The position numbers and the translations under genes were made by a program. DNA of 64,000 bases from an uncultured Acidobacteriota bacterium (lineage in GTDB: Bacteria > Acidobacteriota > Terriglobia > UBA7540). Positions 19,814 through 39,300 of the stretch are shown here, piece after piece. The notes beneath the pieces are model-generated. The model was not told the origin of the DNA. It did not search any database and worked only from the letters and a program-made list of their open reading frames with translations. Location: NCBI GenBank assembly GCA_963804995.1, contig CAWDSK010000008.1, positions 64,001 to 128,000 of the forward strand, read 5' to 3'. Each line of letters opens with the position of its first letter. Positions within the stretch are counted from its first letter, which is position 1.

Positions 19814-21453
19814 ATGATCCACCCGCGCGCCGGACTGCCCCCCGACCCTAAGCTGCTGGTCAACGTTCCCCGGCTCGTTACCGCCTACTACGCCGTCGAG
19901 CCTGACCCCACCGTGGCGGCGGAGCGCGTGGCCTTCGGGACCTCCGGGCATCGAGGATCTTCTTCTCGAGTTCCTTTAACGAAGCCCATATTCTTGCCAT
20001 CAGCCAGGCCATCGCAGACTATCGCCGCCAGCAGGGCATCGACGGCCCACTCTTCCTGGCCAAAGACACCCACGCCTTATCAGAGCCCGCTTTCGCCACG
20101 GCTCTGGAAGTTCTGGCGGCCAACGGCGTCACCGTGATGATCGATCAGGATGACGGCTACACGCCCACCCCTTCTTTATCCCATGCCATCCTGACATTTA
20201 ACCGGGGCCGTAAGACCGGGCTTGCCGATGGCATCGTGATTACGCCCTCGCACAATCCTCCTGAAGACGGCGGTTTCAAGTACAACCCTCCGCATGGAGG
20301 TCCGGCGGATACGGGCGTCACCCGCTGGATTGAGAATCGCGCCAACGCTTTCCTGGAACAGGGGCTGAGCGGCGTGGCACGAATTCCCTATGAAAAAGCC
20401 CTGAAGGCTTCAACCACTCGCCGCTACGACTTCGTGAGCGCCTACGTCAACGACCTCGGCGCCGTCGTGGATATGTCCGCCGTCAGCGGCGCGAAACTCA
20501 AGCTGGGTGTGGACCCCCTGGGCGGGGCGGGAGTGGCCTACTGGGGACGCATCAGCGAGCGCTACGGTTTCCCCCTGACGGTTGTGAGCGACGCCGTCGA
20601 CCCCACCTTCCGCTTCATGACTTTGGACTGGGACGGCAAGATCCGCATGGACTGTTCCTCGCCCTACGCCATGGCCCGGCTGATCGCGTTGAAGGACCAG
20701 TTTGACGTGGCTTTTGCCTGCGACACGGACCACGACCGGCATGGGATTGTGGCTCGCAGCGCGGGATTACTGAATCCCAATCACTACCTGGCCGTAGCCA
20801 TTTCTTACCTCTTCGGAAATCGACCCGGCTGGCCCGCAAATGCGGCGGTGGGCAAGACGCTGGTGAGCAGCAGTATGATCGACCGCGTCGCGAAACACCT
20901 GGGGCGAAAATTGCTTGAGGTGCCGGTGGGTTTTAAGTGGTTTGTTGATGGCCTGCTTGACGGAACCCTCGGATTTGGCGGCGAAGAGAGCGCTGGGGCC
21001 GCCTTCCTGCGGCGCGATGGCAGTGTGTGGACTACCGACAAAGATGGTTTGATCATGGGCCTGCTGGCGGCGGAGATGACTGCCCGCACCGGCCGCGACC
21101 CCGGGGAACTATACCGCGACCTGACCCGGCAATTCGGCGATCCCGTCTATGAGCGCATCGATGCTCCGGCCACCCCTGAGCAGAAATCCGTCTTGCAGAA
21201 GCTCGCGCCCACCCAGATGCCGGCCACGGAGCTGGCGGGGGAAAAAATTGAGTCCATGCTGACGGTAGCCCCCGGCAATTCCCAACCGATTGGCGGCCTG
21301 AAAGTGGTGGCTGCTAATGGATGGTTCGCGGCTCGTCCCTCCGGCACCGAGGACGTTTATAAGATCTACGCTGAGAGTTTTCTGGGCCTCGACCACCTGC
21401 GCAGGATTCAGGCGGAGGCGAAGGGAATCATCGACCACCTGCTGGTGTCTTGA
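19814..21453 (+). CDS. pgm: Phosphoglucomutase (apparent frameshift at about 19965, probably a sequencing error)
   Basis: [10 protein letters not shown] in one frame continues as [14 protein letters not shown]...TPSHNPP...DTDHDRH...GEESAG...ARPSGTE in another. Confidence 0.92.
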
Positions 21454-21481
21454 ATCAGAAATCCGTTGATGCGCCAGCCGG

Positions 21482-21802
21482 CTTGTCTGGTAGCGCGGTC
21501 CCCCGTATTTGGGGTCCGCGGCACTTCGTACCCACAATCCCCCAATACGGGCGGCCGCTTCGCCTCGCTGCATTTGCTCAATTGGCATAGGAAGAACCGC
21601 GGACCTCAACCACGGAGGTCCGCGCTACGCTGGCTCGTAGGGGCACCCTTGTCTGGTAGCGCGGTCCCCCGTATTTGGGGTCCCGCGGCACTTCGTACCC
21701 ACGATCCCCCAACACGGGCGGCCGCTTCGCCTCGCTGCATTTGCTCAATTGGCATAGGAAGAACCGCGGACCTCAACAACGGAGGTCCGCGCTACGCTGG
21801 CT
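21482..21802. repeat. Two near-identical GTAG-type REPINs in tandem (period 166 bp)
   Basis: Copies at 21482-21635 and 21648-21802. Confidence 0.9.
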
Positions 21803-21941
21803 ATGAATGGAAATTAACTCCGCCCTCTTTCGCCGTGGCGACCGAGAGCTAAGAATTTAATTCGGCGCCCTACGGGCGATTTTGAGTTTTGCCTTTTGCC
21901 TTTTGCCTTGTCCTTGCGGCCCCGCCGCGTTGCGTTCCCCC

Positions 21942-22661
21942 CTACCCACCTTCCCGCCTTTGGCAAAGGGCGTAATGCGCGGGGGCAGAGTAGTTGACGA
22001 TGCCTGGGGCGAGCAGCAGGTTGAGAAGGATCTTAGGCAGGCGGCCCCCGTACTTGAAGCGGATGAACTCTTCGGTCAGAAGCTGGACGTTCGCGAAGCG
22101 CTCCGCGAGCAGCTTGCCGAGTTCATTCCTTTCAAATCCCGCGTGGGCGCCCAACTCATTGCGAAACTTCCCCTGCGCCCGAGCTTTCCAGTCCGTCAGG
22201 TTCCAGGTTATCTTCTGCCAGGTGGTGGCATCGGCGGAGCCCAAATATCCGACCGCGCGCGACCGGTTGGGAACCCCCACGTAGAACCAGCCGCCCGGCC
22301 GCAGGACTCGCCGGACTTCGTCCAAGGCCCGACCGGCATCTCCGACGTGTTCAAGGGAATGGAAGGCCGCCACGAAATCGAAAACGCCGGAAGGGAAGGG
22401 GAGGCGTTGCGCGTCGGCGCGGAAGAGGCAGCGCTCCGCGCGGGCCGCCGGCGAAAACCGGTCAGCAATATCCAGCCCGAATACCCGGTGGCTCGCGAAG
22501 GCGCGCCGCAAGTAAACGGCCTCATTCCCGTTCCCGCACCCGACCACCAAGCCCCACAACAACTCGTGCGCCGGGAGACGCTCACCCAGCAACCGGCCGC
22601 CGTGGTGCACCATGTCGGCTACGGGAATTTCCTCGGGACTTGACAGCTTACTGTCGATCAT
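21942..22661 (-). CDS. Class I SAM-dependent methyltransferase
   Basis: LVVGCGNG, ADAQRLPFPSGVFD, SLEHV, RVLRPGG. Confidence 0.88.
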   Translation of the reverse strand: MIDSKLSSPEEIPVADMVHHGGRLLGERLPAHELLWGLVVGCGNGNEAVYLRRAFASHRVFGLDIADRFSPAARAERCLFRADAQRLPFPSGVFDFVAAFHSLEHVGDAGRALDEVRRVLRPGGWFYVGVPNRSRAVGYLGSADATTWQKITWNLTDWKARAQGKFRNELGAHAGFERNELGKLLAERFANVQLLTEEFIRFKYGGRLPKILLNLLLAPGIVNYSAPAHYALCQRREGG

Positions 22662-22836
22662 GGGCTAAGTCGCGGATCTCTCCCTTCGAGAGGGCCGGTT
22701 TCTGCCGCCGTCAAAATGGCCAAGCCCCGACCGGCGGCGCATCGCTCAACGGTCTAACCCCGAGCTCACCCCTGCGCCCGTGACGGGGTTGCCAGACTAC
22801 AAATCTTACTTCAAAAATCCATGTCCGTCATGCTTC

Positions 22837-22946
22837 GGTAGCGGTGCAGGTTGATGTAGAGGCGGCGGCATACATCCCGATCTAATCGGGACGCTGCCAT
22901 ATGGCGAGGTAAACTCGCCGCTACACCATGAAACTGCACCACTACC
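22837..22946. mobile_element. MITE (IS256-like ends) enclosing a REP doublet
   Basis: TIRs GGTAGCGGTGCAGGTT / AAACTGCACCACTACC; flanking 8-bp direct repeat (C/T)ATGCTTC; related copy at 60383. Confidence 0.7.
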
Positions 22947-23278
22947 TATGCTTCCCTCAGTAAATTGAAGTTTTAGGGGGGCAGCGCGAGGCTCGGGCGA
23001 AGTCTCGACTTGGGGCAGGGAAGGGCTGCGAGTTTTGCACAGCTACGTCTGATAATGTTTTTGTCGTGGGATTGCGAGTTAACATAATGTGATTTGCACA
23101 AAACGCACCGAGATTTCCACACATCTCAACCTGCGCTTTCCTTTTCTTCACGTAACATGCTGAACAATATGGGCGAAAATGATCTGCTGCGAATCGGGTA
23201 GGCTGAGGAAAAAGCCCTAATTTTGGCAAACACCGGTGCTAAAGGGAACACCACACAGACGCCAGAGGTGGCACGGTA

Positions 23279-23398
23279 ACTACCCCGTCGCCTCCGGCGC
23301 CACCGTAACCACCCCGGCGCTCGGAGCGCCACCCCTCCTAATTTAGGAGGGGAGTTTTTCCGGAACTCCCCGCCTCAGATGAGGAGGGGTGGCGCGCC
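23279..23398. repeat. CCCCTCCT...AGGAGGGG palindromic repeat family
   Basis: CACCCCTCCTAATTTAGGAGGGGAG...CTCCCCGCCTCAGATGAGGAGGGGTGG; partial copy at about 51215-51244. Confidence 0.7.
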
Positions 23399-23537
23399 AT
23401 GCCCCGATAACGCGTTCTTTCCAAATTGATCATCGGGGCCGAGCGCCGGGGTGGTGCTGACTGCGTTTTTTCTCTTCCCGCCGGCGGGCGCGTGTGCTAA
23501 CTTTATGCCTTGTCGGCGCGTCGACATTGGCCATCGA

Positions 23538-24283
23538 ATGCCTCTGCGGGAAACAGAAGCCATCGTCCTCAGAACCTACCGCCTGAGTGAAGCAGACAAG
23601 ATAGCTTCGCTTTTCACCCGACAACTCGGTCGGCTGAGGGCTGTGGCCCGGGGAGCCCAGCGCCCCAAAAGCCGTTACGGCGGCACGCTCGAACCCTTAA
23701 GCCATGTGCGGCTCTGGATTTTCGAGCGCGAGAATCGGGACCTGCTCCACCTGAATTCCGTGGAACTCCTGGAGTCCTTCTTCGATATGCAGAAGGATTA
23801 CCGGGTGCAACTGGCGGCGAATTTCCTGGCGGAAGTGGCTGAGCATCTCCTCCCCGAGCGCGAGGTGAACGAGCGCGCCTTCCGCCTGCTTTTGGCTGTG
23901 CTCCGGGCCCTGAAACAATCGGGGGAAGTCAACCGGCCGCTGCTCTATTTCGATTACTGGATTCTGCGGCTGGGTGGGGTCCTGCCCGATCTCGTCACCT
24001 GCTCCGCCTGCGGGCGAGAGCTGGGGAAGAAGGCGGCTCCTTCGGGGCGGGTTCAGAAGGCCTGTTGTGCCGTGAGTGCCGCGTGCCGGGTGCGAACCAA
24101 AGGGTTTCCGGCACAGCCCTTGCCATGGTCCGAGGTGTTTGCCAGGCCCCCCTCGACCGGTGGCTGGCCCAGGAAAAAGCCCCTCCCGGATGCCGAGAGG
24201 CCCGGCGGTTTTTTGAAGCCGTCATCGAAAGCCACTTGGAACGGAAATTAATTACGCGGGCGATGATGGAGGAGGAAGTTTGA
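23538..24283 (+). CDS. recO: DNA repair protein RecO (apparent frameshift in the G run at about 24023-24026)
   Basis: EAIVLR.Y.LSEADKI..LFTR..G..RAVARGA.RPKSR. The Zn finger CSAC...CREC is split across frames. Confidence 0.9.
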
Positions 24284-24330
24284 GGGAGGAGCGAGGAAGG
24301 AGCTAGAAGCTAGGAGTTAGGAGCGAGAAG

Positions 24331-24541
24331 CTAGTGTGGTGTCCCGTGCTAGAGTTGACAATGGGTAGAACCCCCTCACCCGTCTGGCCTCGGCTGATGA
24401 GAACGCCTCGGCCAGCCACCCTCTCCCCCAAAGGGGCGAGGGCAAGAGAATTAACTCTCCCCTCGCCCCTTTGGGGGAGAGGGGCTGGGGGGTGAGGGGG
24501 TCGGACAGCCTTGTCAAATATTAACCGGGACACCACACTGG
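24331..24541. mobile_element. MITE (IS630-like ends at CTAG) enclosing a CCCCCTCACCC...GGGTGAGGGGG repeat, itself inside a heptamer-repeat palindrome
   Basis: CTAGTGTGGTGTCCCG / CGGGACACCACACTGG; flanked by AGGAGCT-type heptamers (24284-24330) and their inverse (24542-24581). Confidence 0.7.
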
Positions 24542-24603
24542 CTTCTTGCACTTAGCTCCTAGCTTCTAACTCCTGGCTCCTACCAAGCCAAAGGATATTC
24601 ACC

Positions 24604-25602
24604 GTGCCAGTTCGAAAAGCATCCAAAAATTCGAATGGGGTTACTGGCCCCCTGAACTTCCAGGACATGCTCTTCCGTCTCAGCGCGTACTGGGCGGAAC
24701 AAGGCTGCGTCATCGCCTTGCCCTACGATGTGGAGGTGGGGGCGGGTACCATGTGCCCGGAAACATTTCTGCGCGTCCTGGGGCCTGAGCCCTGGCGGGT
24801 AGCGTACCTCCAGCCTTCTCGCCGCCCCGCCGACGGCCGTTACGGGGAGAATCCCAACCGCTTGCTCAAGCATACCCAGATGCAGGTCATCCTGAAACCA
24901 CCGCCCGAGGATATCCAGGCCAAATACCTCGAGAGCCTGGGCGCGATTGGAATCGACATTCGCCACCACGACATCCGGTTTGAAGAAGACAACTGGGAAG
25001 CCCCCACACTGGGCGCCTGGGGCATCGGCTGGCAGGTCATGCTCGACGGGCTGGAGATTACCCAGTTCACCTACTTCCAGCAGTCGGGCGGGGTAGACCT
25101 TGAACCCATCAGCGTGGAGCTGACGTACGGTCTTGAGCGCATCGCCGCCTTCCTCCAGAACGTTGAGGACGTTTACCATGTGCGCTGGAACGATACGGTC
25201 ACCTATGGCGACATGCGGCGCCAGGAAGAGTTGCAGTTTTCCGTCTATGACTTCGAAGCCGCGGACCCGGAGGTTTGCCGGAAGCTGCTGGACCTGTACG
25301 AGGGTGAGGCGGCGCGTTTGCTGCGGGAGTATCCGCGGAATCCCATGTCTGGTAACCACGAAATAAACAAACAAGATGTGGGAGCTATCTTAAGTAATGC
25401 TTTAAGCCGGAAGCGTTACCCGGTGCGGAAGGTTTATGACTTGACGCTGAAGTGCTCGCACCTGTTTAACATCCTCGACGCGCGCGGCGCGATCAGTGTG
25501 ACGGAGCGGGTGGGGCTGATAGCGCGCGTCCGCAAGCTGGCTTGTGAGGTGGCGGCCCTCTACCTTGACCAGCAAGCGCCCGCGGAGGTGCAGCCGGCAT
25601 GA
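24604..25602 (+). CDS. glyQ: Glycine--tRNA ligase alpha subunit
   Basis: [70 protein letters not shown]. Confidence 0.97.
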
Positions 25603-27946
25603 CGGACGAATCGCAAGCCCCGAAACTCGAAATTCGAAACTCGAAATTCGAAACTGGAAGCTCGGTGGTTGTAGAGGAGGAGTCGGCAATCGACAATCGT
25701 CAATCGGCAATTACCGAAGAACGCCCCTCCGCTATCGTCAGTCGGATATCACCCTTCTCCTTGCCGTTATTGCTCGAGTCGGCTGCGAGGAGATTCCGGC
25801 GCGCTTCCTGCACGAGGCGGAATTGGCTCTGGGGGAGCGGGTGCTCGAGGCGCTCCGCGAGGCTCGGCTGTTGCCTGAGGCAACTAAAATGGCGGATGGC
25901 GACGTGTCCCAATCTGATCGGGACCTGTCCCGATCTGATCGGGAAGCGCCCCTACAAACGTATTCAACTCCGCGGCGGTTGGTGGTTTACGTCCCCGTAG
26001 TGCTGGCTCAGCAGCCTGATAAAGTAGAAGAAATCCTGGGGCCGCCTGTGAAAGTGGCCATTGATGCGGAAGGGAAGTACACCCGCGCGGCAGAGAGTTT
26101 CGCCCAGAAAAACGGAACTCGCTTAGAGGACTTGGCCCGAGCTAGCACGCCCAAAGGGGAATATCTGGCGCTGAGTAAAACCACCCAGGGACGCCCTGCG
26201 CGCGAGATCTTGTCGGAAATTTTGCCCGCCAGTATCCTCGGCTTGACCTTTCCCAAGAGCATGTATTGGAGGGAGAAATTGGGGCCGCGCTTCGTGCGGC
26301 CGATCCGCTGGGTGCTGGCAATTCTGGGAGAAGGGAAGCGGGCCCACACCGTCGACTTCGAAATCCTGGGCATTAAGTCGGGAAACCTTAGCTTCGGCCA
26401 CCGGGCATCCAGCCCTCGCGCGCTGCCTATCAGAGACTTCAAGGATTACTTGAAGAAACTCGGCCAAGCGCGTGTGGAGATTAACCCCCAGTTGCGCCGT
26501 GAGCGTGTCTTGCTGGAAACTCAGGTCCTGGTTGAAACGGCCGGTCTCAAGACCGTGCCTGACGAAGGGTTGATGGATTGGATTGTCAATTCCACCGAGT
26601 GGCCTCGCCCCATGGTCGGGAACTTTGATGAGCGCTTCCTCCACTTGCCGCGTGAAATCCTGATCACCGTGATGCGCGATCACCAGAAATACTTTGCCGT
26701 GGAGGACCAGCAGGGAAACCTGCGGCCGCATTTCGTGGCAGTCCTCAACATGGATTCCGACGCCAAGGGGTTAATCCGCCAAGGCCATCAGCGTGTGCTT
26801 ACTGCCCGCTTCCGGGATGCGGAGTTCTTCTGGAACGCCGACCAGGGCGTGCCCTTGAGCGCTCGCGTGCCGCGGCTGGATCGGGTCACCTACCAGGCTC
26901 AACTGGGCAGCTACGGCGACAAGATTCGCCGTATGAAGGCCATCGCCGAGCACCTCGCAGGCGTCCTCGAAGCGCAGGGAGGGTTGGCTGCCGGTCAGCG
27001 CGACGTCATACTGCGGGCCGTGGAACTCTCGAAGTGCGATCTGACCACGCAGATGGTGCAGGAATTCACGGAACTGCAAGGCATTGTCGGCGGGCTCTAC
27101 GCAAAAGCTCAAGGAGAACTTGAAGGTGTGGCCACGGCGATTTACGACCACTACCTGCCGCTGGGGGCGGAAGGGGAGTCACCCCGCACGCTCGTGGGCG
27201 CCTTGGTTTCGGTGGTCGACAAACTGGACAGTGTGGTCGCGGGCTTTGCCGTGGGGCATGAACCCACGGGATCGAGCGATCCCTTTGCCTTGCGGCGCCA
27301 AGCCAACGGTATAGTTAAAGTATTACTTGAATATTCTCTGCCGATTGATTTGCAAGAAGCCGTTAATCAGGCCCTTGATGTGCTGGAGATTCAGTGGCGA
27401 AAGCCCCGCCCGGAAGTTTCGGCGCGGGTGCTTGACTTTATTGCCGACCGGCTCCGGTATTATTTCGAGGCTGTCCGCGGCTTCCGCTACGACACGGTAC
27501 GCGCGGTACTGGCGGCGGGTGCCGAGAGGCCGGGAGATTGCTTGGCCCGCCTCGAAGCCATGGAAGCCCTGCGCGGCGGGGAGGACTTCGAAGCGCTCTC
27601 GGCAGCCGCCAAGCGCATTAGGAACATCCTGGCGAAGTCGGCGAGCGCGGCGGATTGGCAGCCGGGAGAAGTCGAAGTGGCGCAATTGCACGAGGCGCAG
27701 GAGAAGGAACTCTACGAGGCCTACACAAGGATCGCAGCCGAAGCCGGTCGACTGAGCCAGGTGCATGACTACCGTGGCGCGCTTGAGGCCATCTCTACGC
27801 TCCGTCCGGCGGTCGACCGGTTTTTCGACAAAGTGCTGGTCATGGCGGAAGACCGCGAGATTCGCCGGAACCGGCTGCGCTTGCTGAGTAAGCTGGATGA
27901 ACTGTTTTCCGGCATCGCGCACTTTGCGGAGATAGAAGGGCAGTGA
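25599..27946 (+). CDS. glyS: Glycine--tRNA ligase beta subunit (apparent 1-nt deletion at about 25778)
   Basis: [51 protein letters not shown] overlaps the glyQ stop. Confidence 0.95.
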
Positions 27947-28362
27947 CAGAAGGGATTGATTCATCGGCTCATTGCTTCATCGGATCATTGACGGGGACGT
28001 ATCGAGAGTTGGCCAAGGATTTAATTGTTGTGGGGGATTTAGCTAGCCCGTTACTTGCCGCTCTTCATTCTTCTTGAATGTCGGCGCGTCGACATAGTAA
28101 AAAACGTCACGCTCTGCACTCAGTTGCTTGTTGTAAAAACCCCGGAAATGGGCCAGAATCTTGGGCTCATTCTGTGCTGGCTACCCTCTCCACAATAGGG
28201 ATTATGGGCGGCTATGAACTCTTATGAGGGGAATTGAAGGGATGTAAAGGACCACGGACGAGGGACCGCTGGCATCCAAATAAACTTGAACTTTCAACCT
28301 TTAACTTTGAACCAAAATCTGCAAACTGAATTCTGAGAACCAACAATTCGAAAGGAGCAATC

Positions 28363-31068
28363 ATGGAGAAGTACGTTTATTTTTTTGGAGGCGGGAAAGC
28401 TGATGGCCACGGGGCCATGAAGGATGTTCTGGGAGGAAAAGGTGCGGGCCTGGCGGAAATGACCAACGCCGGTTTGCCGGTTCCTCCGGGATTCACCATT
28501 GTGACTTCTGCTTGCCGCCTTTATTTCCAGAATAACAATCAGACCCCCGCTGACATTCTCACCCAGAAGGACGAGGCGCTCGCGAAGCTCGAGGCGCTGC
28601 TCGGGCAGAAGTTGGGTAACCCGAACAACCCCTTGCTGGTTTCCGTGCGCTCCGGCGCCAAGTTTTCCATGCCCGGCATGATGGATACCATCCTGAACCT
28701 GGGTATGAACGACGCCGTCGTCGAGGTGATTGCGCGCAAGACCGGCAATCCGCGCTTTGCCTACGACAGCTATCGGCGCTTCATCCAGATGTTCGGCAAC
28801 GTGGTGATGGAAATTCCCAAGGACAAGTTCGAGCACGTCTTCGACGGCCAGAAGAAGAAAAAGAAGATCAAGCTCGACACGGATCTCACCGCCCAGGATC
28901 TGCAGCAGGTCATCGCGGACTACAAGAAAGTGGTTCGCAAGAAAGCCGGCAAAGACTTCCCGCAGGACCCGCAAGTGCAGCTCAACATGGCGATCGAGGC
29001 CGTGTTCCGCTCCTGGTACAACCCCCGCGCGCATACCTATCGCCGCATGAACAAGATTTCTGACGATCTGGGAACGGCCGTGAACGTCCAGACCATGGTC
29101 TTCGGCAATATGGGAGAGACCTCCGGCACGGGCGTGGGCTTTACGCGTGACCCGGCCACGGGCGCCAAGGAGTTCTACGGCGAGTTCCTGATGAATGCCC
29201 AGGGCGAAGACGTGGTGGCGGGCGTACGCACCCCGGTGCCGATCAAGGAACTGGAAAAGATCATGCCGGAGGTTTATAACCAGCTCCGTGAAATCACCAC
29301 TCGCCTCGAGAAGCATTACAAAGACGTGCAGGATTTTGAGTTCACCATTCAGGAAGGCAAGCTCTACATGCTTCAGACCCGCAACGGCAAGCGTACCGGG
29401 CCTGCGGCGGTGCGGATCGCCGTGGAGATGGTCAAAGAGGGCCTGCTGACTCCCAAGGAAGCCATTCTGCGCGTTGAGCCCGAGCAGTTGAACCAGTTGT
29501 TGCACCCGGTGCTGGATGAGTCGAAACCCCTGAAGACCATTGCCCGAGGCCTGCCGGCTTCACCCGGAGCGGCCGTGGGACGCGTGGTATTTACGGCGGA
29601 CGAGGCCGTGGTGGCGGGGAAGTCCGGTCCCGTGGTATTAGTGCGCGGCGAGACCGTGCCGGATGATATTCATGGTATGGAAGTGGCCGTAGGCATTCTC
29701 ACCTCCCGCGGCGGCATGACTTCGCACGCGGCCGTGGTAACGCGCGGCATGGGCAAACCCTGTGTGGCGGGCTGCGGTGAGGTCGAAGTGGACGAGAAAT
29801 CCCGGCAGATCAAAGTTGGCACTCTGGTCATCAAGGATGGCGACTGGATTTCGCTTGATGGTTCAACGGGCCGCGTGATTCTGGGCAAAACGAATCTGGT
29901 GGAGCCTGATCCGCACAGCGGCGTCTTTGCCGAGTTCATGAAGTGGGCTGACGAATTTCGCGAGCTGGGTGTGCGCGCCAATGCGGACATCCCGCGCGAC
30001 GCCACCGTCGCCCGGCGCTTTGGAGCGGAAGGCATCGGCCTGTGCCGCACTGAGCATATGTTCTTCGCCAAGGATCGGCTGCCGCACGTGCAGCGCATGA
30101 TCATGGCTTGCAAGGAGACTCAGGACCCGAAGGAAGCGGCCAAATACGAAAAGGAACGTCGCGCCGCGCTCCTGAAGATCCTGCCCATGCAGCGCCAGGA
30201 CTTCTTCGGGCTCTTCAAGGCCATGGACGGGTTGCCGGTCACCATCCGCACGCTCGACCCGCCGCTGCACGAGTTCCTGCCCAAGCGGGAAGAGTTGATG
30301 GTGGAGATTGCGACGCTCGAAGCGACCAAGAAGCGGAGCCCTAAGCTCCCTGGACTCAGGAAGCTACTGGAAGTAGTTGAAGGATTACATGAATTCAATC
30401 CCATGCTGGGGTTGCGCGGTTGCCGGCTGGGCATCATGTATCCCGAGATTACGGAGATGCAGGCGCGCGCCATCTTCGAAGCGGCCTGCGATTGCAAGAA
30501 AAAGGGAATTGAAGCAAAGCCTGAAGTTATGATTCCTCTGGTGGGTGATGTAAAGGAGTTGCAGGCGCAGAAGGAGATCGTGAACCGCGTCGCCGCCGAG
30601 GTATTTGCGAAGAAGGGCGTCAAGGTTGAGTATCTGGTGGGGACGATGATCGAGCTCCCGGCCGCGGCTCTGTCGGCGGGTGAGATCGCCCAGGAAGCGG
30701 AGTTCTTCAGCTTCGGCACCAACGATCTGACGCAGACCACTTTCGGAATATCGCGCGACGACTGCGCCAAGATCATCAAGGCTTACGTCAACTTGAAGAT
30801 CTGGCCGGCGGACCCGTTCGCGGTGCTCGACCCGAAGCGTGTGGGGAGGCTGCTGAAGCTCGCCACCAAGGAAGGCCGCGAAGCCCGCGAAAAGTTGAAG
30901 GTGGGAATCTGCGGCGAACACGGCGGCGATCCCTCGTCCATCGAGGTTTGCGCCGAGGCGGGTTTGAATTACGTAAGCTGCTCGCCTTACCGCGTGCCGA
31001 TCGCACGGCTCGCGGCCGCCCAAGCCGCCGTGAAGAAACAGATGGGGAAGGCTTACACCACGGCTTAA
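28363..31068 (+). CDS. ppdK: Pyruvate, phosphate dikinase
   Basis: LGGKGAGLAEM, SVRSGAKFSMPGMMDT, GGMTSHAAVV, GLCRTEHMF, FSFGTNDLTQ; RBS AAGGAG. Confidence 0.98.
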   Translation: MEKYVYFFGGGKADGHGAMKDVLGGKGAGLAEMTNAGLPVPPGFTIVTSACRLYFQNNNQTPADILTQKDEALAKLEALLGQKLGNPNNPLLVSVRSGAKFSMPGMMDTILNLGMNDAVVEVIARKTGNPRFAYDSYRRFIQMFGNVVMEIPKDKFEHVFDGQKKKKKIKLDTDLTAQDLQQVIADYKKVVRKKAGKDFPQDPQVQLNMAIEAVFRSWYNPRAHTYRRMNKISDDLGTAVNVQTMVFGNMGETSGTGVGFTRDPATGAKEFYGEFLMNAQGEDVVAGVRTPVPIKELEKIMPEVYNQLREITTRLEKHYKDVQDFEFTIQEGKLYMLQTRNGKRTGPAAVRIAVEMVKEGLLTPKEAILRVEPEQLNQLLHPVLDESKPLKTIARGLPASPGAAVGRVVFTADEAVVAGKSGPVVLVRGETVPDDIHGMEVAVGILTSRGGMTSHAAVVTRGMGKPCVAGCGEVEVDEKSRQIKVGTLVIKDGDWISLDGSTGRVILGKTNLVEPDPHSGVFAEFMKWADEFRELGVRANADIPRDATVARRFGAEGIGLCRTEHMFFAKDRLPHVQRMIMACKETQDPKEAAKYEKERRAALLKILPMQRQDFFGLFKAMDGLPVTIRTLDPPLHEFLPKREELMVEIATLEATKKRSPKLPGLRKLLEVVEGLHEFNPMLGLRGCRLGIMYPEITEMQARAIFEAACDCKKKGIEAKPEVMIPLVGDVKELQAQKEIVNRVAAEVFAKKGVKVEYLVGTMIELPAAALSAGEIAQEAEFFSFGTNDLTQTTFGISRDDCAKIIKAYVNLKIWPADPFAVLDPKRVGRLLKLATKEGREAREKLKVGICGEHGGDPSSIEVCAEAGLNYVSCSPYRVPIARLAAAQAAVKKQMGKAYTTA

Positions 31069-31182
31069 GCGGGTTCTAGGTGCTGGGGGCTGGGGACTGG
31101 CTCCAGCCCTCCCCTCTTCGGTGTTTCGAGTAGGGCAGGTGAGCGCCATCCAGACTTAAAGTAATACTTTAACTGTTTCTCT

Positions 31183-31222
31183 AAGGCCACGGACTCTACG
31201 GAGGTTCGTGGCCTTTTCTTTT
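31183..31222 (+). terminator. Rho-independent terminator after ppdK
   Basis: AAGGCCACGGAC...GTTCGTGGCCTT stem followed by TTCTTTT. Confidence 0.75.
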
Positions 31223-31232
31223 GCCGATTACT

Positions 31233-31304
31233 CACCGCAGAGACGCAGAGGCGAAGAGGTTTGAATGTGTAAATATCTTCTCTGCGTCTCAGCGTCTCCG
31301 CGGT
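31233..31304. repeat. CACCGCAGAGACGCAGAG...CTCTGCGTCTC..CGCGGT palindromic element
   Basis: Same family as the core of the 6289-6416 MITE. Confidence 0.75.
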
Positions 31305-31451
31305 AGGAAGGGTAAGTCTGATTGCTCCCCCGGTCCCCGTGTCGACGCGTCGACATAGTACTGACGGGTCGCTGGCACTGCTCCTCCTCCCTTGCCGTTT
31401 CAAAATTGGTTTCCCCGCTTCGCTGCTTTGGGTTATCCTAACCCCGCCAAC

Positions 31452-33296
31452 ATGAACATTGATCCGGGCGCCACAAGTCCACAACCCCGCGCCGACAATT
31501 CCGGCTGGATCCGCCAGATGCCACTCGTGGGTGTGGCCGCCGTGACGGTCCTTACTTATGCCGCCACGCTGGGCTTCGGTTTTGTTTTTGACGATCACGG
31601 TCTCATTGAAAACAACGGCGCCCTTCGTTCCTGGAGATATTTTCCCAGCTACTTTACGTCCCACATTTGGAGTTTTCGCTACCCGCACTTGCTGGCCAAT
31701 TACTACCGGCCCTTCTTTCTGACCTGGCTGCGGGTGAACTATATTTTGTTTGGGCTTCGCCCGTGGGGCTGGCACCTTACTTCCGTCCTGACCCATGTGG
31801 CCGTGACCTGCCTGGTGTATTGGCTGGTCGTCCGGCTTGCCCGGGATGGCTGGGTCGCGGGCGTAGCGGCATTAGTCTTCGCTCTTCACCCTGTGCAAGC
31901 TGAGGCAGTTTCCGACATCACTTCGGTGCAAGAACCGCTCTCCACGTTTTTCCTGCTAGCCGGCGTTCTGGCCTGGCTGCACATGCGCGAACCGGCGCGG
32001 CAGAGAACCAGCCTGGCCTGCGCCTTGGCCTGTTATGCAGGCGCACTGCTGTCAAAGGAAAGCGGGCTCATGTTTCTTCCCCTGTTGGCGGTCCTGGAAG
32101 GAACCCTCCCGGCTCCGGGTAGCAGCACGCGAACGGTCCCCCAGCGGGTCCGCGATTTTCTGGCCGCGGTCATCCCTTTTCTGGGAATCACGCTCCTCTA
32201 CATCGCACTTCGGATTTGGGCGCTCAAAGGTTTTGCGCACACCGTCACTCCGGTGGCCCTCCGGACCGAAATATTTACGATTCCCTCCGTCCTGCTGTTT
32301 TATAGTCGAATGCTCGTGTGGCCCCTGGATCTGGCCTGCTACTACGACACACCCTATATTTCTACGCCGTCTCTGGGAGGCTTTGTGCTCCCGGGCGCGA
32401 TGGTTCTGGGGGTAATTGCCGCCCTGGGATTCTGGTATGCCAGGACCCGCCGGCACGCACCGGGGGAAGCGCGGCTCGTTGCCTTTGCCACGCTGTGGAT
32501 GGCCGTAGCCATCGTGCCCGTCCTGAACTTTCGGCTGTTGCCAGAGGGCGAGATTGCGCATGACCGTTATCTCTATCTTCCCCTGTTGGGGGTTGCCCTA
32601 TGGGTGGGCTTGGGATTGCGACAGGCAAGCCGCCTGGGGGCGCGTTTCCAGCGGCGGCCGATTTGGGGGCTTGCCGGAGTGGTGCTGCTCGCGCTGCTCC
32701 TGGGTTTCGCGGCCCTCCGGCAGAGTCTCTATTGGTCAGACGACCTCACGCTGAACTACCGCGCCCATTTGATTGCTCCTCGCAATGTTTATGCCACCAC
32801 CAGTCTTGCGGCTGCCGCGGCGCAAGTGGGAAAGGTGGAAGCGGCCATGGCGCTCTACCAACAGGCATTGGCGGCTCGGCCGGACTTCTGGCGAGCCAAT
32901 GTCAACCTGGCCTACATTTATTACGCGCATGGAAACTTTCAGGAAGCCTCTGGCTACTTTCAGCGTGCCTGCGCGGCAGACCCCACGGACGGGGATCAGT
33001 TCCTCTATTTGGGTATGTCCCTGCTTCGAGTGGGTCAACCCGGGGAGGCGGAGAAGGCGGTCCGCACCGCACTGCTGGTCAGGCCAAACGGAGTAAACTA
33101 CCATCTCGGTTTGGGGATGGTCCTGATGCAGGAGGGTAAGCTCGAAGAGGCGCGGCAGGAATTGGAAAAGGATCTCGCGGCAGACCCGCACAATGCCCAA
33201 GCGGAAGCCCTGCTAGGGCAAGTGACTCAGCAACTGGAAAATTCTCACCAGACGCTAACTTCCGGGCCTTCCGCCGCAAGCCCGGCACAGCCTTAA
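31452..33296 (+). CDS. TMTC-like GT-C glycosyltransferase with C-terminal TPRs (paralog 1)
   Basis: FVFDD...YYRP...FALHPVQAEAV...LLSKES...DRYLYLP, followed by TPR repeats. Confidence 0.85.
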   Translation: MNIDPGATSPQPRADNSGWIRQMPLVGVAAVTVLTYAATLGFGFVFDDHGLIENNGALRSWRYFPSYFTSHIWSFRYPHLLANYYRPFFLTWLRVNYILFGLRPWGWHLTSVLTHVAVTCLVYWLVVRLARDGWVAGVAALVFALHPVQAEAVSDITSVQEPLSTFFLLAGVLAWLHMREPARQRTSLACALACYAGALLSKESGLMFLPLLAVLEGTLPAPGSSTRTVPQRVRDFLAAVIPFLGITLLYIALRIWALKGFAHTVTPVALRTEIFTIPSVLLFYSRMLVWPLDLACYYDTPYISTPSLGGFVLPGAMVLGVIAALGFWYARTRRHAPGEARLVAFATLWMAVAIVPVLNFRLLPEGEIAHDRYLYLPLLGVALWVGLGLRQASRLGARFQRRPIWGLAGVVLLALLLGFAALRQSLYWSDDLTLNYRAHLIAPRNVYATTSLAAAAAQVGKVEAAMALYQQALAARPDFWRANVNLAYIYYAHGNFQEASGYFQRACAADPTDGDQFLYLGMSLLRVGQPGEAEKAVRTALLVRPNGVNYHLGLGMVLMQEGKLEEARQELEKDLAADPHNAQAEALLGQVTQQLENSHQTLTSGPSAASPAQP

Positions 33297-33316
33297 AGTA
33301 ATACTTTAAGTTAAGC

Positions 33317-34999
33317 GTGCAAAGAATTGAATTAAGGTCAGAAGGAGTCGGCGCCTTGAAGAAATCTCTTTTCGATCACTGGCCGCTTTATGCGTCAGTT
33401 CTTCTGTTCTTGGTGATCCTCTACATCGTCCTGGACGTGTCCGTCAGCCACAACCACGGCTATTTGGTGTATGCCGGCGATGACGCTTACATCGGGATGG
33501 CAGTGGCCAGGGATTTCTCGCAATTCGGGGTTTGGGGAGTGACGCGTTACGGATTCACCTCCCTGTCTTCAACCCTTCTTTGGACGCTTCTTTTGAGTTT
33601 GACTTATTACCTGGGAGGAGTTAATCAGATCGCGCCGCTCGTGTGGAATCTCGTCTTTGCCTTTCTGGTTTTGCTCGTTTCCTACGTCATACTTTCCCGC
33701 TACAAGGTTGCGGCCGGAGCGAAATTTGCGGCTCTCCTGGGCCTCATCCTGTTGCTCCCCTTGCCCTCTCTGGTTCTCATGGGGATGGAGCACACCCTGC
33801 AAACCTTGCTCGCGCTCCTCACGATATTCCTGGGGGCGCGGCTGCTCTCCCAGGAATCACCCGGCAGCGCCCGGCGTGATACGGTTCTGCTTCTCATCCT
33901 GGCGCCGCTGGTCACCAGCACGCGCTTTGAAGGAATGTTCCTGATTGCCGCCCTCAGCGGCCTTTCCCTCCTGTTCAAGCGTTGGCGTTTTGCCCTGGGG
34001 TTTGCCCTGTGCGGATTTCTCCCCATTGTTGTGCATGGGATCATTTCGGTGTCGCACGGGTGGTTCTGGTTTCCGACCTCGCTGCTGCAGAAGGCATCGT
34101 TACCGCATTCCGCCTCTGCCGCGGATTTCTTTCTTTCCCTGGTCAATCCCATCTTCATCAACTTCCGTTCGGCTCTCCATACGCTGGTCCTCGTCGTGGC
34201 GGTTCTCCTGGCTTACATCCTGGCCAGCGGGAAGGGAAGCCGCCCCACGGAAAGCCGGCAACTCTTCGGCGCCGTCGTGGTTTTACTCTGGCTGGCCCAC
34301 TTCGAGTTTGTGGGGTCCTCCCCCATGTACCGCTACGATGCGTATCTGTGTGCGTTAAGCATCGTCTACCTGGCCATGCAGGTTCCCGTCATCGCCGCCC
34401 AATTGCCGCGCGTGTTGGCGTTATCCACGTGGGCGAATTCCAGGAACCTCGCTTGCGTTTTACTGGCTCTGGTGCTTTTCTTCCCACTGGCCGTCAAGGG
34501 CAGCCGGCTCCTCTGGTTTCTGCCCCAGTGCACGATGAATACCTTTGAGCAGCAGTACCAGATGGGACTGTTCGTCCGCCAGTTTTACCAAGGCGCCGTG
34601 GTGGGGCTCAACGATATCGGGGCGGTCAATTTCCTGGCGGATATTCATTGCCTGGATTTATATGGACTGGCCGAACCGGAGATTACCGCAGCGATGCGGA
34701 ACCATACCTATCAAGCCCAAGACATCCAGCGCCTGGCAAATCAAAAGGGGGCGCGCATCGCCATCATCTATGACACCTGGTTCATGGGCGTAGTGCCGCC
34801 GGAATGGGTGCGGGTGGGCACCTGGACGATTCAGAACAACATCATCAACGGCAATGAGACGGTTTCCTTCTACGCCGTGGAGCGTGAGGAGGCAGCGCGC
34901 TTGAGTGAATCCCTGCTGGAATTCGCCCCGATGCTCCCTCCCGACGTGATCCAGCAAGGCGCATATCTAATGCAAGAGCAGCCCCTGGCCCGACCTTGA
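33317..34999 (+). CDS. Polytopic membrane protein, probable GT-C glycosyltransferase
   Basis: DDAYI after TM1, GME..L, TRFEG, NDIGA...DLYGL motifs. Confidence 0.75.
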   Translation: MQRIELRSEGVGALKKSLFDHWPLYASVLLFLVILYIVLDVSVSHNHGYLVYAGDDAYIGMAVARDFSQFGVWGVTRYGFTSLSSTLLWTLLLSLTYYLGGVNQIAPLVWNLVFAFLVLLVSYVILSRYKVAAGAKFAALLGLILLLPLPSLVLMGMEHTLQTLLALLTIFLGARLLSQESPGSARRDTVLLLILAPLVTSTRFEGMFLIAALSGLSLLFKRWRFALGFALCGFLPIVVHGIISVSHGWFWFPTSLLQKASLPHSASAADFFLSLVNPIFINFRSALHTLVLVVAVLLAYILASGKGSRPTESRQLFGAVVVLLWLAHFEFVGSSPMYRYDAYLCALSIVYLAMQVPVIAAQLPRVLALSTWANSRNLACVLLALVLFFPLAVKGSRLLWFLPQCTMNTFEQQYQMGLFVRQFYQGAVVGLNDIGAVNFLADIHCLDLYGLAEPEITAAMRNHTYQAQDIQRLANQKGARIAIIYDTWFMGVVPPEWVRVGTWTIQNNIINGNETVSFYAVEREEAARLSESLLEFAPMLPPDVIQQGAYLMQEQPLARP

Positions 35000-35053
35000 C
35001 TCCGGTCTGGAGCGTAGGAAATTGGTCCGCTTGACGGGTTCCAACCTTCAGGG

Positions 35054-35663
35054 GGCTGGCGCAGGGCGAGCTCAGCCCTGCGATTCACCATGCCTGGTGA
35101 TATTCCTCCGATCTAAGAAACAAGCTTGCGATTCTATGATCGAAACGATTCCTCCGCCGCGGCGTTGGACCTGGTGACTTGATTTGCACTAATTCGCAGA
35201 GCTGGGCTCGCTCTGCGCCAACCAGCCTACACAGGACGCGGCGGTTCAGGCGGCGCTGCGGCGGAATACGGGATGGGCTTGGTGAATCTGCGGGTGCGCG
35301 GCGGCGGTTTTCCTGAAAACAAAAACGAGTTTGCCGGGCTCGGGGGCGTCTTCGAGGTCGAGTTCGAGGCCGCAGTCATTTACGAAGTGGTCGCGAATGG
35401 CTTGGGCGGCGCTGAGCGTGAAGGCTTCCCGATAAATTAAGCCGTCACCCAGATCCGCTACGAGGTGGTTTTGGAAAAATGGTCCGCGCGGGTCTTTGGC
35501 CGTGCCCACACACCATTCGCCCCAGCCTCCCCCGAATTTCTGAATGTGTTCCTGGATGTCCGTAATAATGTCAGCGCGATTGCTGGGCATGGTTGTTACC
35601 CTCCCCGGACCGGCTGACTTGATGTGCCCTAAATCGCAGAACTGGGCTCGCCCTGCGCCAGCC
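35054..35663. repeat. Hairpin repeat family: direct copies at 35167-35223 and 35607-35663, inverted copy at 35054-35085
   Basis: 57-bp direct repeats with 8 mismatches; covarying stem GCAG(A/G)GC...G(C/T)(T/C)CTGC. Confidence 0.85.
35246..35590 (-). CDS. Small hypothetical protein, possibly a degenerate GIY-YIG-like fold
   Basis: RBS GGGGAGG; W.VG.AKDP...H pattern recalls GIY-YIG-like proteins (from memory). Confidence 0.65.
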   Translation of the reverse strand: MPSNRADIITDIQEHIQKFGGGWGEWCVGTAKDPRGPFFQNHLVADLGDGLIYREAFTLSAAQAIRDHFVNDCGLELDLEDAPEPGKLVFVFRKTAAAHPQIHQAHPVFRRSAA

Positions 35664-35725
35664 GACCGAGAGGCGCCAGCGCGTTCCCCAGCTTACACTT
35701 CAATGGTTTTCTTAGCGCTTTTGGG

Positions 35726-36271
35726 TCAAGCCCCTCGGTCATGGTCCGATGCGTGCTCTTGCCTTGGACATCCCCCCTTGTCCCTGGCATTGATCCGCTT
35801 GGCGAGGGGCTTCAAAAGGAAGAGCGAAGCGCCGGTCAAGAACACGGTCCATACAACGTTTGTGGCGATCTCAAGCAGGGCTGAAGCCGAGTTGGACGGA
35901 AAGCCCAAGTGAGTTATTCCCATCCAGTCGATTAGCATGAACAAGCCGAAAACCACCGGGGCCCCGCATATGACCCGCCTCTTTAGGATTCTCCACATCT
36001 CGGCCTCTGACTTGACGACAGTGCGAGGGGCAATTGGCGTTATTTCCCGTCCTCGCCTGTCGACTCCAGCTCCGCAGACCGGACACGTCCAACCACCCCA
36101 CATGGCCTGTCGGAGGGACCGTGGCTCGCGTAAGCTTGGAAGCGGGGTGTTGCATCGCGGGCAAGAAACCGGGTTTAGATTGATTCCCCATTTGTTCTTG
36201 GCGGCACCGTATGCTACCAACACTGCGCCGACCATCAGCGCGAATAAAAGCACTACCACAAAAATCGCCAT
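35726..36271 (-). CDS. Membrane protein with Zn ribbon; candidate Rhs immunity protein
   Basis: Directly downstream of the Rhs gene; RBS GGAGGAG; TM-CPRC...CPVC-TM-TM. Confidence 0.7.
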   Translation of the reverse strand: MAIFVVVLLFALMVGAVLVAYGAAKNKWGINLNPVSCPRCNTPLPSLREPRSLRQAMWGGWTCPVCGAGVDRRGREITPIAPRTVVKSEAEMWRILKRRVICGAPVVFGLFMLIDWMGITHLGFPSNSASALLEIATNVVWTVFLTGASLFLLKPLAKRINARDKGGCPRQEHASDHDRGA

Positions 36272-36323
36272 TTCTCCTCCAGACAGGCCCAGCTAGCAGG
36301 CTATGGGACAGCCATTTCTATTA

Positions 36324-39300
36324 CTAATAAACCCCAGAGGCAGAGCAGACACCCGAGGCCGCCGAGCCCCAGATTGCTCCACCAGCCGCGCCAATCGTCC
36401 CCCCAGTCAAACCACCCAAAAGCCCAGCGACCGGGATGGTGAGTTCGTCGCCGACACCCATCCCCAAGACCGTTCCAGACACAACGCCCGCGTATATTCC
36501 GGCAGCTGCCCCCTTCGAAGCACCAAACACAAACCAGTTCCATACATTGTTTGCCGGCGAGCTTCCACAATAGAACGACTTTGCGGCCTGCTTAATCTGC
36601 GGCAACCGCGGCGTAGACGGACCTAGCGGCGGCAGGGGTGGAAAGCCAGCCGGAAGCGGCAAGGATATGAATGACCCGGAGTCACCTGTGTCTCCGGTCA
36701 GCCCAAGGCCGCCTGTATCCCCGGTCTGAGTCGAAACGGTCCAGAATCCGTCGAAGCCGAACATAACATCGGCGATCGATCCTCCAGGGAGCATGCCGCT
36801 TACCCAGACATCTGTTGCCGGAGTGTAGTACGCCGTTGTCACGGTGGAGTTGGCGGCCCACTGGGCGACTTGGGACTCGAAAATTGCATTTGTCCAGCCA
36901 TGCGTGGCGTTGGCCAAGAAACTGCAACCCGGATCCTCAACCTCATCCACGTAGCACGTGACCCCCTGAGTCATGTTTGTGTTCCAGTTGCCTCCTCCCT
37001 GTCCCCAATAGCGATAGGGAATCGGAGGGTCGAGCCCTAGCGGGTCGGTGAGCGTCGTGGGGTTATTCAGCACGTAGGCGTAGCGGTTGAGCGACTGAGG
37101 ATTGGTGACATCCCCAGCGAGCGGGTCGGGGCTCATCCAGCGGCCGTAGGTGGGGGAGTACCGGCGGAACTGGGTCTGGTATTGCTCGATGCTGGGGTCT
37201 TCGTCCGGCAGGCTGGCGAAGATTTGGTGCAGTTCGTGGGCGAAGATTTCCGAGGGGTCCTGCCATTTCTGTCCCCAGGGATAGAACAGGGCCTCACTGC
37301 CGGTGCTTCCCGCCCAATTCGTGGCCTGCGAGACCGATCCCAGGGCGTTGGGGTGGTCCAGGTAAGCCCCGATGGTTTCGTAGTCCGCCACCAGGCGCGA
37401 GCCCATGAAGAGAAACGCGCAGTAGGACGTGCCGCCCCAGTTGGCGCCCACCATCAGCCCGTCCGCGTCGTGCCACCAATTGACCAGGCTCGAGGGAAAT
37501 TGCCAGTACACTCGCCACCCCAGCGCATTGTAAGTCATCGCGTTGCCGTCCAGCGTGCTCATGCGCCCCTCGGCATCCCATTGGTAATTGTGCGAGCCGT
37601 CGGCCAGCACATTCCCCGCCGCGTCGTAAGTGAACCCGCTGATCCGATTGCTGGAGGCACTGAAAGTCCAGTTCGGGCAGGGCCCGTTCGTCTGCCCGTT
37701 GGTTGAGCAGCCCATGTTGCCGTAACGGTCGTAAGAGAAATTCAGGTAGTAAGTGCTGTTGCCGGTCGCCTGGCCCAGAGTCAATCGGTTCAGGCTGTCG
37801 TAACTGTACGAGGCGCTGTGGCTCAGTCCGCTGTAAACGTTGTCCAGGTAATAGTAACCCGCCGCGTTGCCGTTGTCGTTGGTCCCCGACGGCCAATTCG
37901 CGGGCGACTCCGAACAGGCTGAAGCATTCTGCACACCCACGTAATAATTGTACACCCAGCAGTTGAACTGCGCATGGTTCGAGGCGGTGCCCAGCTCGGC
38001 CACGGCCATCTGCAAGCGATTGTTGTATACGTAGGTTTCCTGGATTTGGGTGCAGCCCGACCCCGTACAACCGTTCAGCAGGGTGCTCACTTGCCCGGTC
38101 GGCGCGTAGGTAATGTTCTGGGCGAGATACTGGGGATCAAGGGAGTCCACCAGACTGCTCTCAATGGACGTAATGCGCTGTGCTTCGGAAACGGTGTTGG
38201 TAAAAGTGATATTCGCCGGGTGCGTCCAGCTTGTCACGTCACCCGCCAAGTCGTAATTGTAGGCGGTCTGCCAGATACTCGCGCTGCTGCAGTTGTAGGG
38301 CGTGCACTGCCAGAAGTTCGTGGGCCGCCCCATGGGGTCGTAACTGTAAACCGCTGCCGTCTGCGGGCTGCTGCACGTTCCGGAATTCGATCCCGTGCAG
38401 GCAACTGTCAAACGACCTAAGGCATTACTGAAGGTGACGCCAGACCAAGCCGGCCACGAACTCGGCGCCCGATCGTAGAAGAAGCTCGCCGGCGGGGTGC
38501 TGTCGGAATAGGTCTTCCCAGTAAGGCGATTCAGCGGGTCGAGGTATGCGTACGTGGTGGTAATGCTGCGCGCGTCGGTCCGGCTACAGGGTGCGTTCGC
38601 ATCCCCGCTGCATGGCCCACCTGACGTGTAGTAGGAATAATTCGTTGTGCCGGACTCGGGCGTGGTGGCCTGGGTCAACCGCCCTAGGCCGTCATAGGAG
38701 TAACTGCGGGTTTGGCTGCCTTGGCTGACCCCCGTGAGGTTACCTAGCGGGTTGTAAGAGTATGTGGTCTGGTAATTGAGGTTGTTCGGGTCTTCGAAAG
38801 CCTGTGTGGTCCAGCCCAGCGCGCCCATACATAGCTTACGGCCCTTGCCTCCGGGGTCAGTGACTGTAACGCAGTTGCCGGAATAACTGCTTGATGTTGT
38901 CGAGTTGTCGGGCATGATTACAGCCGTGGGGCGGTTAAGGGCGTCGTAGTTGTATTGGGTCGTTCCGTCGGTGGGGCCGGATGTACTGGAGTGGGGATTG
39001 CTCACCTTCCAAACACGCCCCAAGGCATCGTACGTTGTGTCAACTTCAGAAATGACTGAACCTCCGCTGTCAAGAAGCTTCTGTGTGATTACGCGCCCGA
39101 GGCCGTCGAGAACTGTCTCGTCATGGCGAGTAATGGAACTCGTCAATGCCGTGTATACATCAAGCACGGTGGCCGTATAGTCGATAGTTTTGGATCCGGT
39201 ATCGGGATAGGTCGTTGAAGTTAGCCGCCAGAATGGATCGTTGTACTGAAAAGTGGTTTCCAGGCCGGTGATCTGCCCGTTCGGATCCTTTTCCGAAGTC

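Follow-up and report, generated by a model that had tools for sequence, protein, structure and literature searches.

In the accessible parts of the literature compared here, sequence-defined organisers of the replication terminus have been reported from enterobacteria and vibrios, which have matS, and from Bacillus, which has XDS; terminus recognition in most bacteria is an open question. According to the portions available, matS sites are densest near dif, and MatP provides a link to ZapB and the exclusion of MukBEF (PMC7188993, PMC10945525). The available text also covers ZapT of Caulobacter crescentus, a MerR-type protein that binds within open reading frames (ORFs) over the terminus region, with a merR gene adjoining ihfA as the criterion for ZapT in PMC7188993; the dif-like terminus sites of Bacillus subtilis (XDS) at which XerD unloads Smc-ScpAB (Karaboja 2021, as reported in citing papers); and ram, a clustered GC-rich palindrome of B. 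subtilis bound by the MerR-fold chromosome anchor RacA (PMC4914108). The comparison literature, likewise available in part, includes PMC3025954, PMC11894783, PMC7858052, PMC11840125, and PMC4234026. The subject of this report is motif A, a 17-letter AT-rich palindrome with a 1-bp centre (consensus TTMAAGT-D-W-H-ACTTKAA) that is clustered at the recO-glyQS-ppdK locus of an uncultured Acidobacteriota bacterium. The window is the whole 64,000-nucleotide stretch that was analysed (C8:64001-128000) from the source genome, G000 (7.55 Mb, 9 contigs, 92% complete). G-numbers denote the genomes compared, f-numbers families, C-numbers contigs of G000, and L-numbers loci.

From comparison with the DNA of relatives, motif A is probably a terminus-concentrated palindrome in many Acidobacteriota and the site of a dimeric, terminus-marking protein of the matS/MatP kind. 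It would work like matS but is neither matS, for which both the sequence and the protein tests failed, nor parS nor dif. As with matS, a short terminus palindrome is concentrated around dif, and a ZapB/ZapA-type link is available in the source genome. The differences are that motif A is a 17-bp AT-rich sequence and matS a 13-mer, that MatP (PF06303) was found in 0 of 20 genomes with a positive E. coli control, that the SMC complex here is Smc-ScpAB, and that several acidobacterial families pack the sites into 10 kb beside two other elements. The analysis yields three sequences in defined form and shows where they lie with respect to dif throughout the phylum and which lineages have or lack them; it also names candidate proteins. 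In the literature searched, which mostly left out subscription journals, the matches listed held no description of motif A, motif B, or an acidobacterial terminus system, and no account was found of a change in which sites scattered in the manner of matS in some lineages form a compact cassette of several elements in others.

Clustering and conservation of motif A

A preliminary description made from the window alone had placed six palindromic sites in glyQ, glyS, ppdK, and the DNA downstream, and all six were present at those positions (Table 1); its gene assignments were borne out by NCBIfam. The sequence at 33292-33310 is, as described there, a 19-bp palindrome in which the central base alone is unpaired, and 31155-31172 shares 18 of its bases. 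The statement that, by eye, no full copy was found outside this 8-kb stretch was amended, in that a matrix trained on relatives added a seventh copy in the window, at 46755-46771 (22.1 bits).

Table 1. Motif copies, the dif-like element, and genes of the locus, in window coordinates
Feature	Position	Strand	Remarks
recO	23451..24251	+	true start likely ATG near 23538, from comparison with relatives
glyQ	24604..25602	+	lineage-specific insertion holds a motif A copy
glyS	25544..27946	+	holds two motif A copies
ppdK	28363..31068	+	holds a single motif A copy, a weak one
Motif A, weak copy, 15.9 bits	25389..25405 (17-bp core)		inside glyQ insertion
Motif A, 27.6 bits	26438..26454		inside glyS
Motif A, 35.5 bits	27315..27331		inside glyS, in AT-ending codons
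Motif A, weak copy, 17.9 bits	30377..30393		inside ppdK
Motif A, consensus copy	31156..31172		ppdK 3' untranslated region, directly before terminator hairpin 31183-31215
Motif A, consensus copy	33293..33309		covers stop codon of TPR membrane-protein gene (31392-33296)
Motif A, outlying copy, 22.1 bits	46755..46771		inside GH57 gene
Motif B, copy 1	23511..23526		directly before likely recO start
Motif B, copy 2	28079..28094		between glyS and ppdK
Motif B, copy 3	31340..31355		perfect palindrome
dif-like 28-mer	23077..23104	-	perfect XerD arm 23077-23087, non-XerC left half, variable spacer

With the preliminary pattern at ≤2 mismatches, 9 strand-matches corresponding to 5 sites were obtained in the window and none in each of 100 shuffles. 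Over the 7.55 Mb of the source genome, 3 of 3 sites at ≤1 mismatch from the core and 5 of 11 sites at ≤3 mismatches fell in the cluster. In the ranking by matrix, which was trained on 60 relatives' sites picked by nearness to the window consensus and is thus partly circular, the five best copies in the genome all lay on C8, inside 20 kb. The genome-wide count was not raised over the reversed-sequence control (6 vs 5 matches at ≥20 bits), so the signal lies in clustering and not in abundance. Clustering and conservation are what exceeds chance, and the sites are clustered rather than uniformly spread through the genome, as the preliminary description had held.

Clustered matches were also found in genomes of the same genus and of further Terriglobia families, at recO-glyQS-ppdK-TPR-lptFG and at positions that vary by genome. 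Among 80 glyQ loci, the 27 closest, some of which may be from genomes used in training the matrix, held 118 sites at ≥17 bits in 408 kb, with 26 of the 27 loci positive and 1 site in the reversed control; the remaining 53 held 3 sites in 975 kb (2/53 loci positive). Known genes contain 66 of the 118 close-kin sites, and others are in 3' untranslated regions (UTRs) or between convergent genes, so that the sites do not stand solely upstream of genes. The ppdK position scores ≥15 bits in 7 of 21 close-kin loci. Close kin had a third-position GC of 0.21 over that site where distant kin had 0.69; at the strong glyS site the values were 0.47 and 0.68, respectively, with a gene average near 0.68. At the second glyS site there was no such drop (0.71 in close and 0.57 in distant kin). 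Coding motif A sites force AT-ending codons, and conservation, which the preliminary description had named as a check, was found in relatives, synonymous positions included. The glyQ insertion (window ~25330-25420, near residues 245-275) is variable in many f1 and f10 genomes and in f1 often carries a motif A copy. In f8, a strong motif A site occurs in the rluB-serS neighbourhood at a different intergenic position in each genome (G071 L036:7764-13978; G044 L046:6560-10864), and in G071 (L036) scpA lies ~2 kb from it.

Position of motif A relative to dif

A dif pattern was matched in 46 of 80 genomes, and a looser pattern in 24 of 30. In all 13 single-contig genomes with a dif match, dif lay at 0.43-0.49 of the circle from dnaA. 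The glyQ gene was usually linked to the terminus, at a distance from dif of 6-7 kb in f3 and 15-23 kb in f4; in f1, all 8 genomes with both on one contig had glyQ upstream of dif, 43-322 kb from it. If dif of the source genome were 70-80 kb downstream of glyQ, as in three f1 relatives, it would fall just beyond the end of C8. Three genomes in which glyQ has been relocated away from the terminus (G071, G131, and G040) had no motif A sites at glyQ, yet each retained one at a distance from dif of 129, 263, and 9 kb, respectively.

All 7 strict sites of G443 lay 13-275 kb from dif, on both sides and spanning 440 kb, mostly within unrelated ORFs such as a dnaE-like ORF, with closeness to dif as the sole common factor. 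Matrix tiling of this genome gave 9 sites at ≥15 bits in the 400 kb around dif (3 in the reversed control) and 0 in 280 kb sampled from the other large contig. Its GC skew tends negative past dif. In the single-contig genome G325, 13 of 13 sites were within 650 kb of dif. Motif A was found 0.8-9 kb from dif in G101, G149, G325, G152, G040, G187, and G203, and genomes outside Terriglobia (G187, G203, G186, and G325) had sites 1-19 kb from it.

For a pooled test, 48 genomes were taken as the source, from which 23 without a strict site, 2 without a dif match, and 8 that were fragmented were excluded; G443 and G325 were added, having been chosen by count over control and not by position. Of the resulting site clusters, 29 of 36 (17 genomes) lay within 400 kb of dif, with 7.9 expected. 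After removal of the glyQ-linked clusters, the count was 23 of 30 (13 genomes), with 7.0 expected and a combined p of ~4e-6, overstated because the genomes are related. Motif A follows dif rather than glyQS; certain lineages have it spread over ~440 kb, and others confine it to 10 kb at recO-glyQS-ppdK. The sites are conserved, change place between genomes, skew the choice of codons, and stay with dif whatever genes surround them, which points to a real, conserved, terminus-linked binding-site system; binding itself we infer from the sequence.

Candidate binding protein and rival explanations

A dimeric protein would bind motif A and mark the terminus as MatP does at matS. Once bound, it would tether the terminus to the division ring via the ZapB-like/ZapA pair, or keep Smc-ScpAB off the dif region, or both. 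The leading named candidate is a ZapT-type MerR protein, put forward tentatively and by analogy; a different binder is at least as likely. The source genome encodes a ZapT-type MerR (its gene followed by tRNA-Pro), a ZapB-like coiled coil and ZapA, whose genes follow pheT (pheT-zapB-like-zapA), and also Smc, ScpA, and XerD, and in the first three it resembles the ZapT-ZauP-ZapA system. The ZapT-type MerR is at C2:597315-597734, the ZapB-like protein at C1:461700-461963, and XerD at C3:77658-78686. A likeness of motif A to the palindrome upstream of E. coli soxS, which we take to be the SoxR box, was counted in favour of this candidate, and so was the existence of other MerR-fold proteins that anchor chromosomes. 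Homologues of the protein were present in 30 of 30 Terriglobia and 253 of 301 genomes of the phylum. Strict motif A matches occurred in 87 of the 301, many of them chance matches in AT-rich genomes where controls were equally high; by hand count, they were in 81 of 253 genomes with the ZapT-type protein vs 6 of 48 without it, about half of the 48 being one family. The unpublished genome G196 was counted in the phylum tallies only, and no claim depends on it alone. Differences from Caulobacter are the tRNA-Pro gene that follows, with no ihfA seen beside the gene (a crude pattern showed no IHF motif up to 1.5 kb away at 31 loci), and the presence of the protein in lineages without motif A. No autoregulatory motif A site of >12 bits was found beside the ZapT-type gene in the 31 loci, and no binder gene was found next to the sites among conserved neighbours. 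More doubtful still is the wider proposal that Acidobacteriota possess a sequence-coded terminus system of their own that has no relation to MatP/matS. In several Terriglobia families it would have condensed into a 10-kb "anti-centromere" cassette (an array of motif A, an array of motif B at a fixed offset of 4 bp, and a XerD-only site), whose parts would jointly anchor the terminus at the Z-ring and unload SMC. If it held, the ZapT family, for which no motif is given in the parts of the literature available, would gain in motif A its first defined recognition sequence.

Besides the relatedness of the pooled genomes, several results weigh against these proposals. No strict-pattern site was found in 23 of 48 Terriglobia genomes, families f4 (0/9), f2 (0/3), and f12 (0/2) being without any, with weaker motif A sites at glyQS in some f2 and f4 genomes. 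G250 and G190, of other classes and with the ZapT-type protein, had 0 sites at ≥18 bits in 400 kb around dif. One G174 site lies 1.5 Mb from dif, and a further miss is a G075 site on another contig. The assembly of the source genome has no dif match, so its terminus position rests on kin; GC skew and KOPS (FtsK-orienting polar sequence) counts were weak and did not place the terminus within C8. The ZapT-type protein is near-universal, including in lineages without motif A, and its helix-turn-helix showed no co-variation with the presence of motif A. For Caulobacter ZapT itself, the portions of the literature available report no consensus and low specificity in vitro. A de novo dyad search of distant kin and of motif-negative termini gave nothing convincing, and the same method also missed motif A in G443, so that its outcome carries no weight either way.

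Some of the positional evidence would also suit other functions. Motif A might be a polar, Ter-like replication-fork trap flanking dif and bound by a Tus or RTP analogue, which is unlikely but is kept alive by a mild bias in orientation: when asymmetric sites not belonging to the glyQS arrays were counted by hand, the G-bearing arm faced dif in 16 of 21 (p = 0.027); the occurrence of sites on both sides of dif also agrees with it. The consensus is, however, symmetric, the strongest copies are perfect palindromes, the f1 array lies on one side of dif only, and leading-strand G together with codon effects may explain the bias. The closeness of several sites to dif (1-9 kb) would likewise fit a terminus-organising binder with another job, e.g., recruiting gyrase or FtsK-Xer for decatenation, and one gyrA/gyrB-type pair with no separate topoisomerase IV was seen in the source genome (crude motif search, 92%-complete assembly); this is improbable, given no direct topoisomerase link and given that the spread of the sites, which is 440 kb in G443 and reaches 1.3 Mb in G325, is more matS-like. 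Little probability is given, too, to motifs A and B being transcription-factor operators for recO-glyQS-ppdK and other genes, with a terminus link that follows gene order. A motif B copy directly before the recO start and another before ppdK would suit operators, as would the overlap of the lone XerD arm with a weak predicted -10 hexamer and the soxS likeness noted above. The prevalence of sites within genes, in 3' UTRs, and between convergent genes goes the other way, and in the window the copies between the ppdK stop and its terminator and on the TPR stop codon are a poor fit for an operator; moreover, the G443 sites are in unrelated genes united only by nearness to dif, glyQS loci far from the terminus lack sites, and motif B also occurs inside glyS. 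The gyrA-type and gyrB-type genes of the source genome are at C2:126782-134733.

It is very improbable that the palindrome arose as a side effect of AT-biased mutation in the region or from what is left of repeats close to the terminus. Chance matches are many in AT-rich genomes, with controls as high as the real counts, but the sites lie in DNA of 54-62% GC, a control with the reversed pattern gave almost nothing in these loci, the invariant G and C bases (G6/C12) have been retained, and sites arise independently at different codons; this explanation is largely refuted. Hardly credible is a non-canonical parS centromere of the chromosomal ParB. The array does resemble parS in that clustered palindromes are tolerated in coding DNA, and motif B shares the 16-bp length and the outer TGT...ACA frame. 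The source genome has parAB, with a single ParB, but even at 2 mismatches it shows no canonical parS, for which reason a variant centromere was first suspected; the absence is best explained by assembly gaps. Canonical parS was found in 44 of 46 Terriglobia and in 5 of 5 genomes of the same family as the source genome, with copies 7-30 kb from dnaA in nine genomes among the matches listed, whereas the array lies opposite dnaA, and no second ParB-family protein was found in the source genome. The parS explanation was therefore rejected. The ParB helix presumably keeps the usual specificity residues. Of the site-array reading in the preliminary description, the chromosome-organising part stood, the sites being terminus-linked and following dif, and the partitioning part did not, canonical parS being separate and near dnaA. 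Patterns for Noc, SlmA, and matS, as we take them to read, had scattered or no matches in the source genome and none on C8, with 2 scattered matches for matS. Within f7, G061, G106, and G124 had 18, 21, and 29 canonical parS matches, respectively, vs 1-5 in most kin, and those of G061 were spread round the whole chromosome, from 286 kb to 4,373 kb.

Motif B, the lone XerD arm, and other features of the locus

Motif B, TGTCGRCGCGYCGACA, is a GC-rich 16-bp palindrome, and all 3 copies in the source genome at ≤1 mismatch are within this locus. Every motif B copy in G025, G057, and G061 was likewise at the locus. An exact match was found at 35 of 302 loci. The families taken as carrying motif B are f1, f2, f4, and f7, and those taken as carrying motif A are f1, f3, f7, part of f8, f10, f24, f25, and f29; neither the f3 arrays nor the scattered sites of G443 include motif B. 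A gap of exactly 4 bp between motifs A and B occurred at 18 of 131 motif B sites, every other gap having ≤2 occurrences. These pairs are found at several positions in two families, with none in the source genome, and in a metagenome scan for the A-4-B composite 11 of 11 loci were in the recO-glyQS-ppdK gene neighbourhood. The fixed gap suggests two proteins side by side on A and B, of which the second would bind motif B beside motif A. A precedent for motif B, and for architectural proteins of the MerR fold, is ram/RacA, although ram is 14 bp, origin-proximal, and sporulation-specific, and its sequence differs from motif B. In f4, an xerD-like gene ends ~3 kb upstream of recO in G057 (L048:152-3817), with two motif B copies in between. 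A GC-rich palindrome 2 mismatches from motif B is present in the source genome at C1:372589, C3:809653, C6:43361, and C6:1099456; at least three of these copies have similar flanks, and it looks like a dispersed repeat element.

The dif-like 28-mer upstream of recO is likely a XerD-only (XDS-like) site; neither it nor motif B is in the preliminary description. Like XDS, it is a XerD-arm sequence that lies within the terminus region but separately from dif, and XerD at this arm would be the likely SMC unloader. It was kept in 25 of 27 close-kin loci and also in f2 and f3, and was found in 1 of 53 distant glyQ loci and in 0 of 6 comparison glyQ loci from f5, f6, f8, f10, and f12. The element may also have a promoter role, its overlap with the -10 hexamer being on the + strand. 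It was ruled out as the true dif, since its spacer varies and canonical dif is 43-322 kb away in kin. The 11-6-11 layout of dif, in which a conserved spacer separates a XerC arm from a XerD arm, is found neither in motif A nor in this element. Motifs A and B, unlike XDS, are not dif-like, in that they have no 6-bp spacer and an invariant core unlike the XerD arm. Ten places in the source genome share an identical stretch of 32 bp whose core resembles a dif arm (e.g., C1:514364, C2:158398, and C3:8328); the stretch is probably an insertion-sequence end.

No Rfam families were matched in window 20000-40000. The pgm gene at window 19355-21453 matches its model only from position 110, which likely reflects an assembly indel. 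Elsewhere in the source genome, xerC and scpA (C5:107431-108344 and C2:622894-623771) are seemingly split across frames, also by likely assembly indels. On the - strand at window 36324-41058, a Rhs/YD-repeat gene overlaps an upstream Rhs-repeat ORF, and the two are possibly one frameshifted gene.

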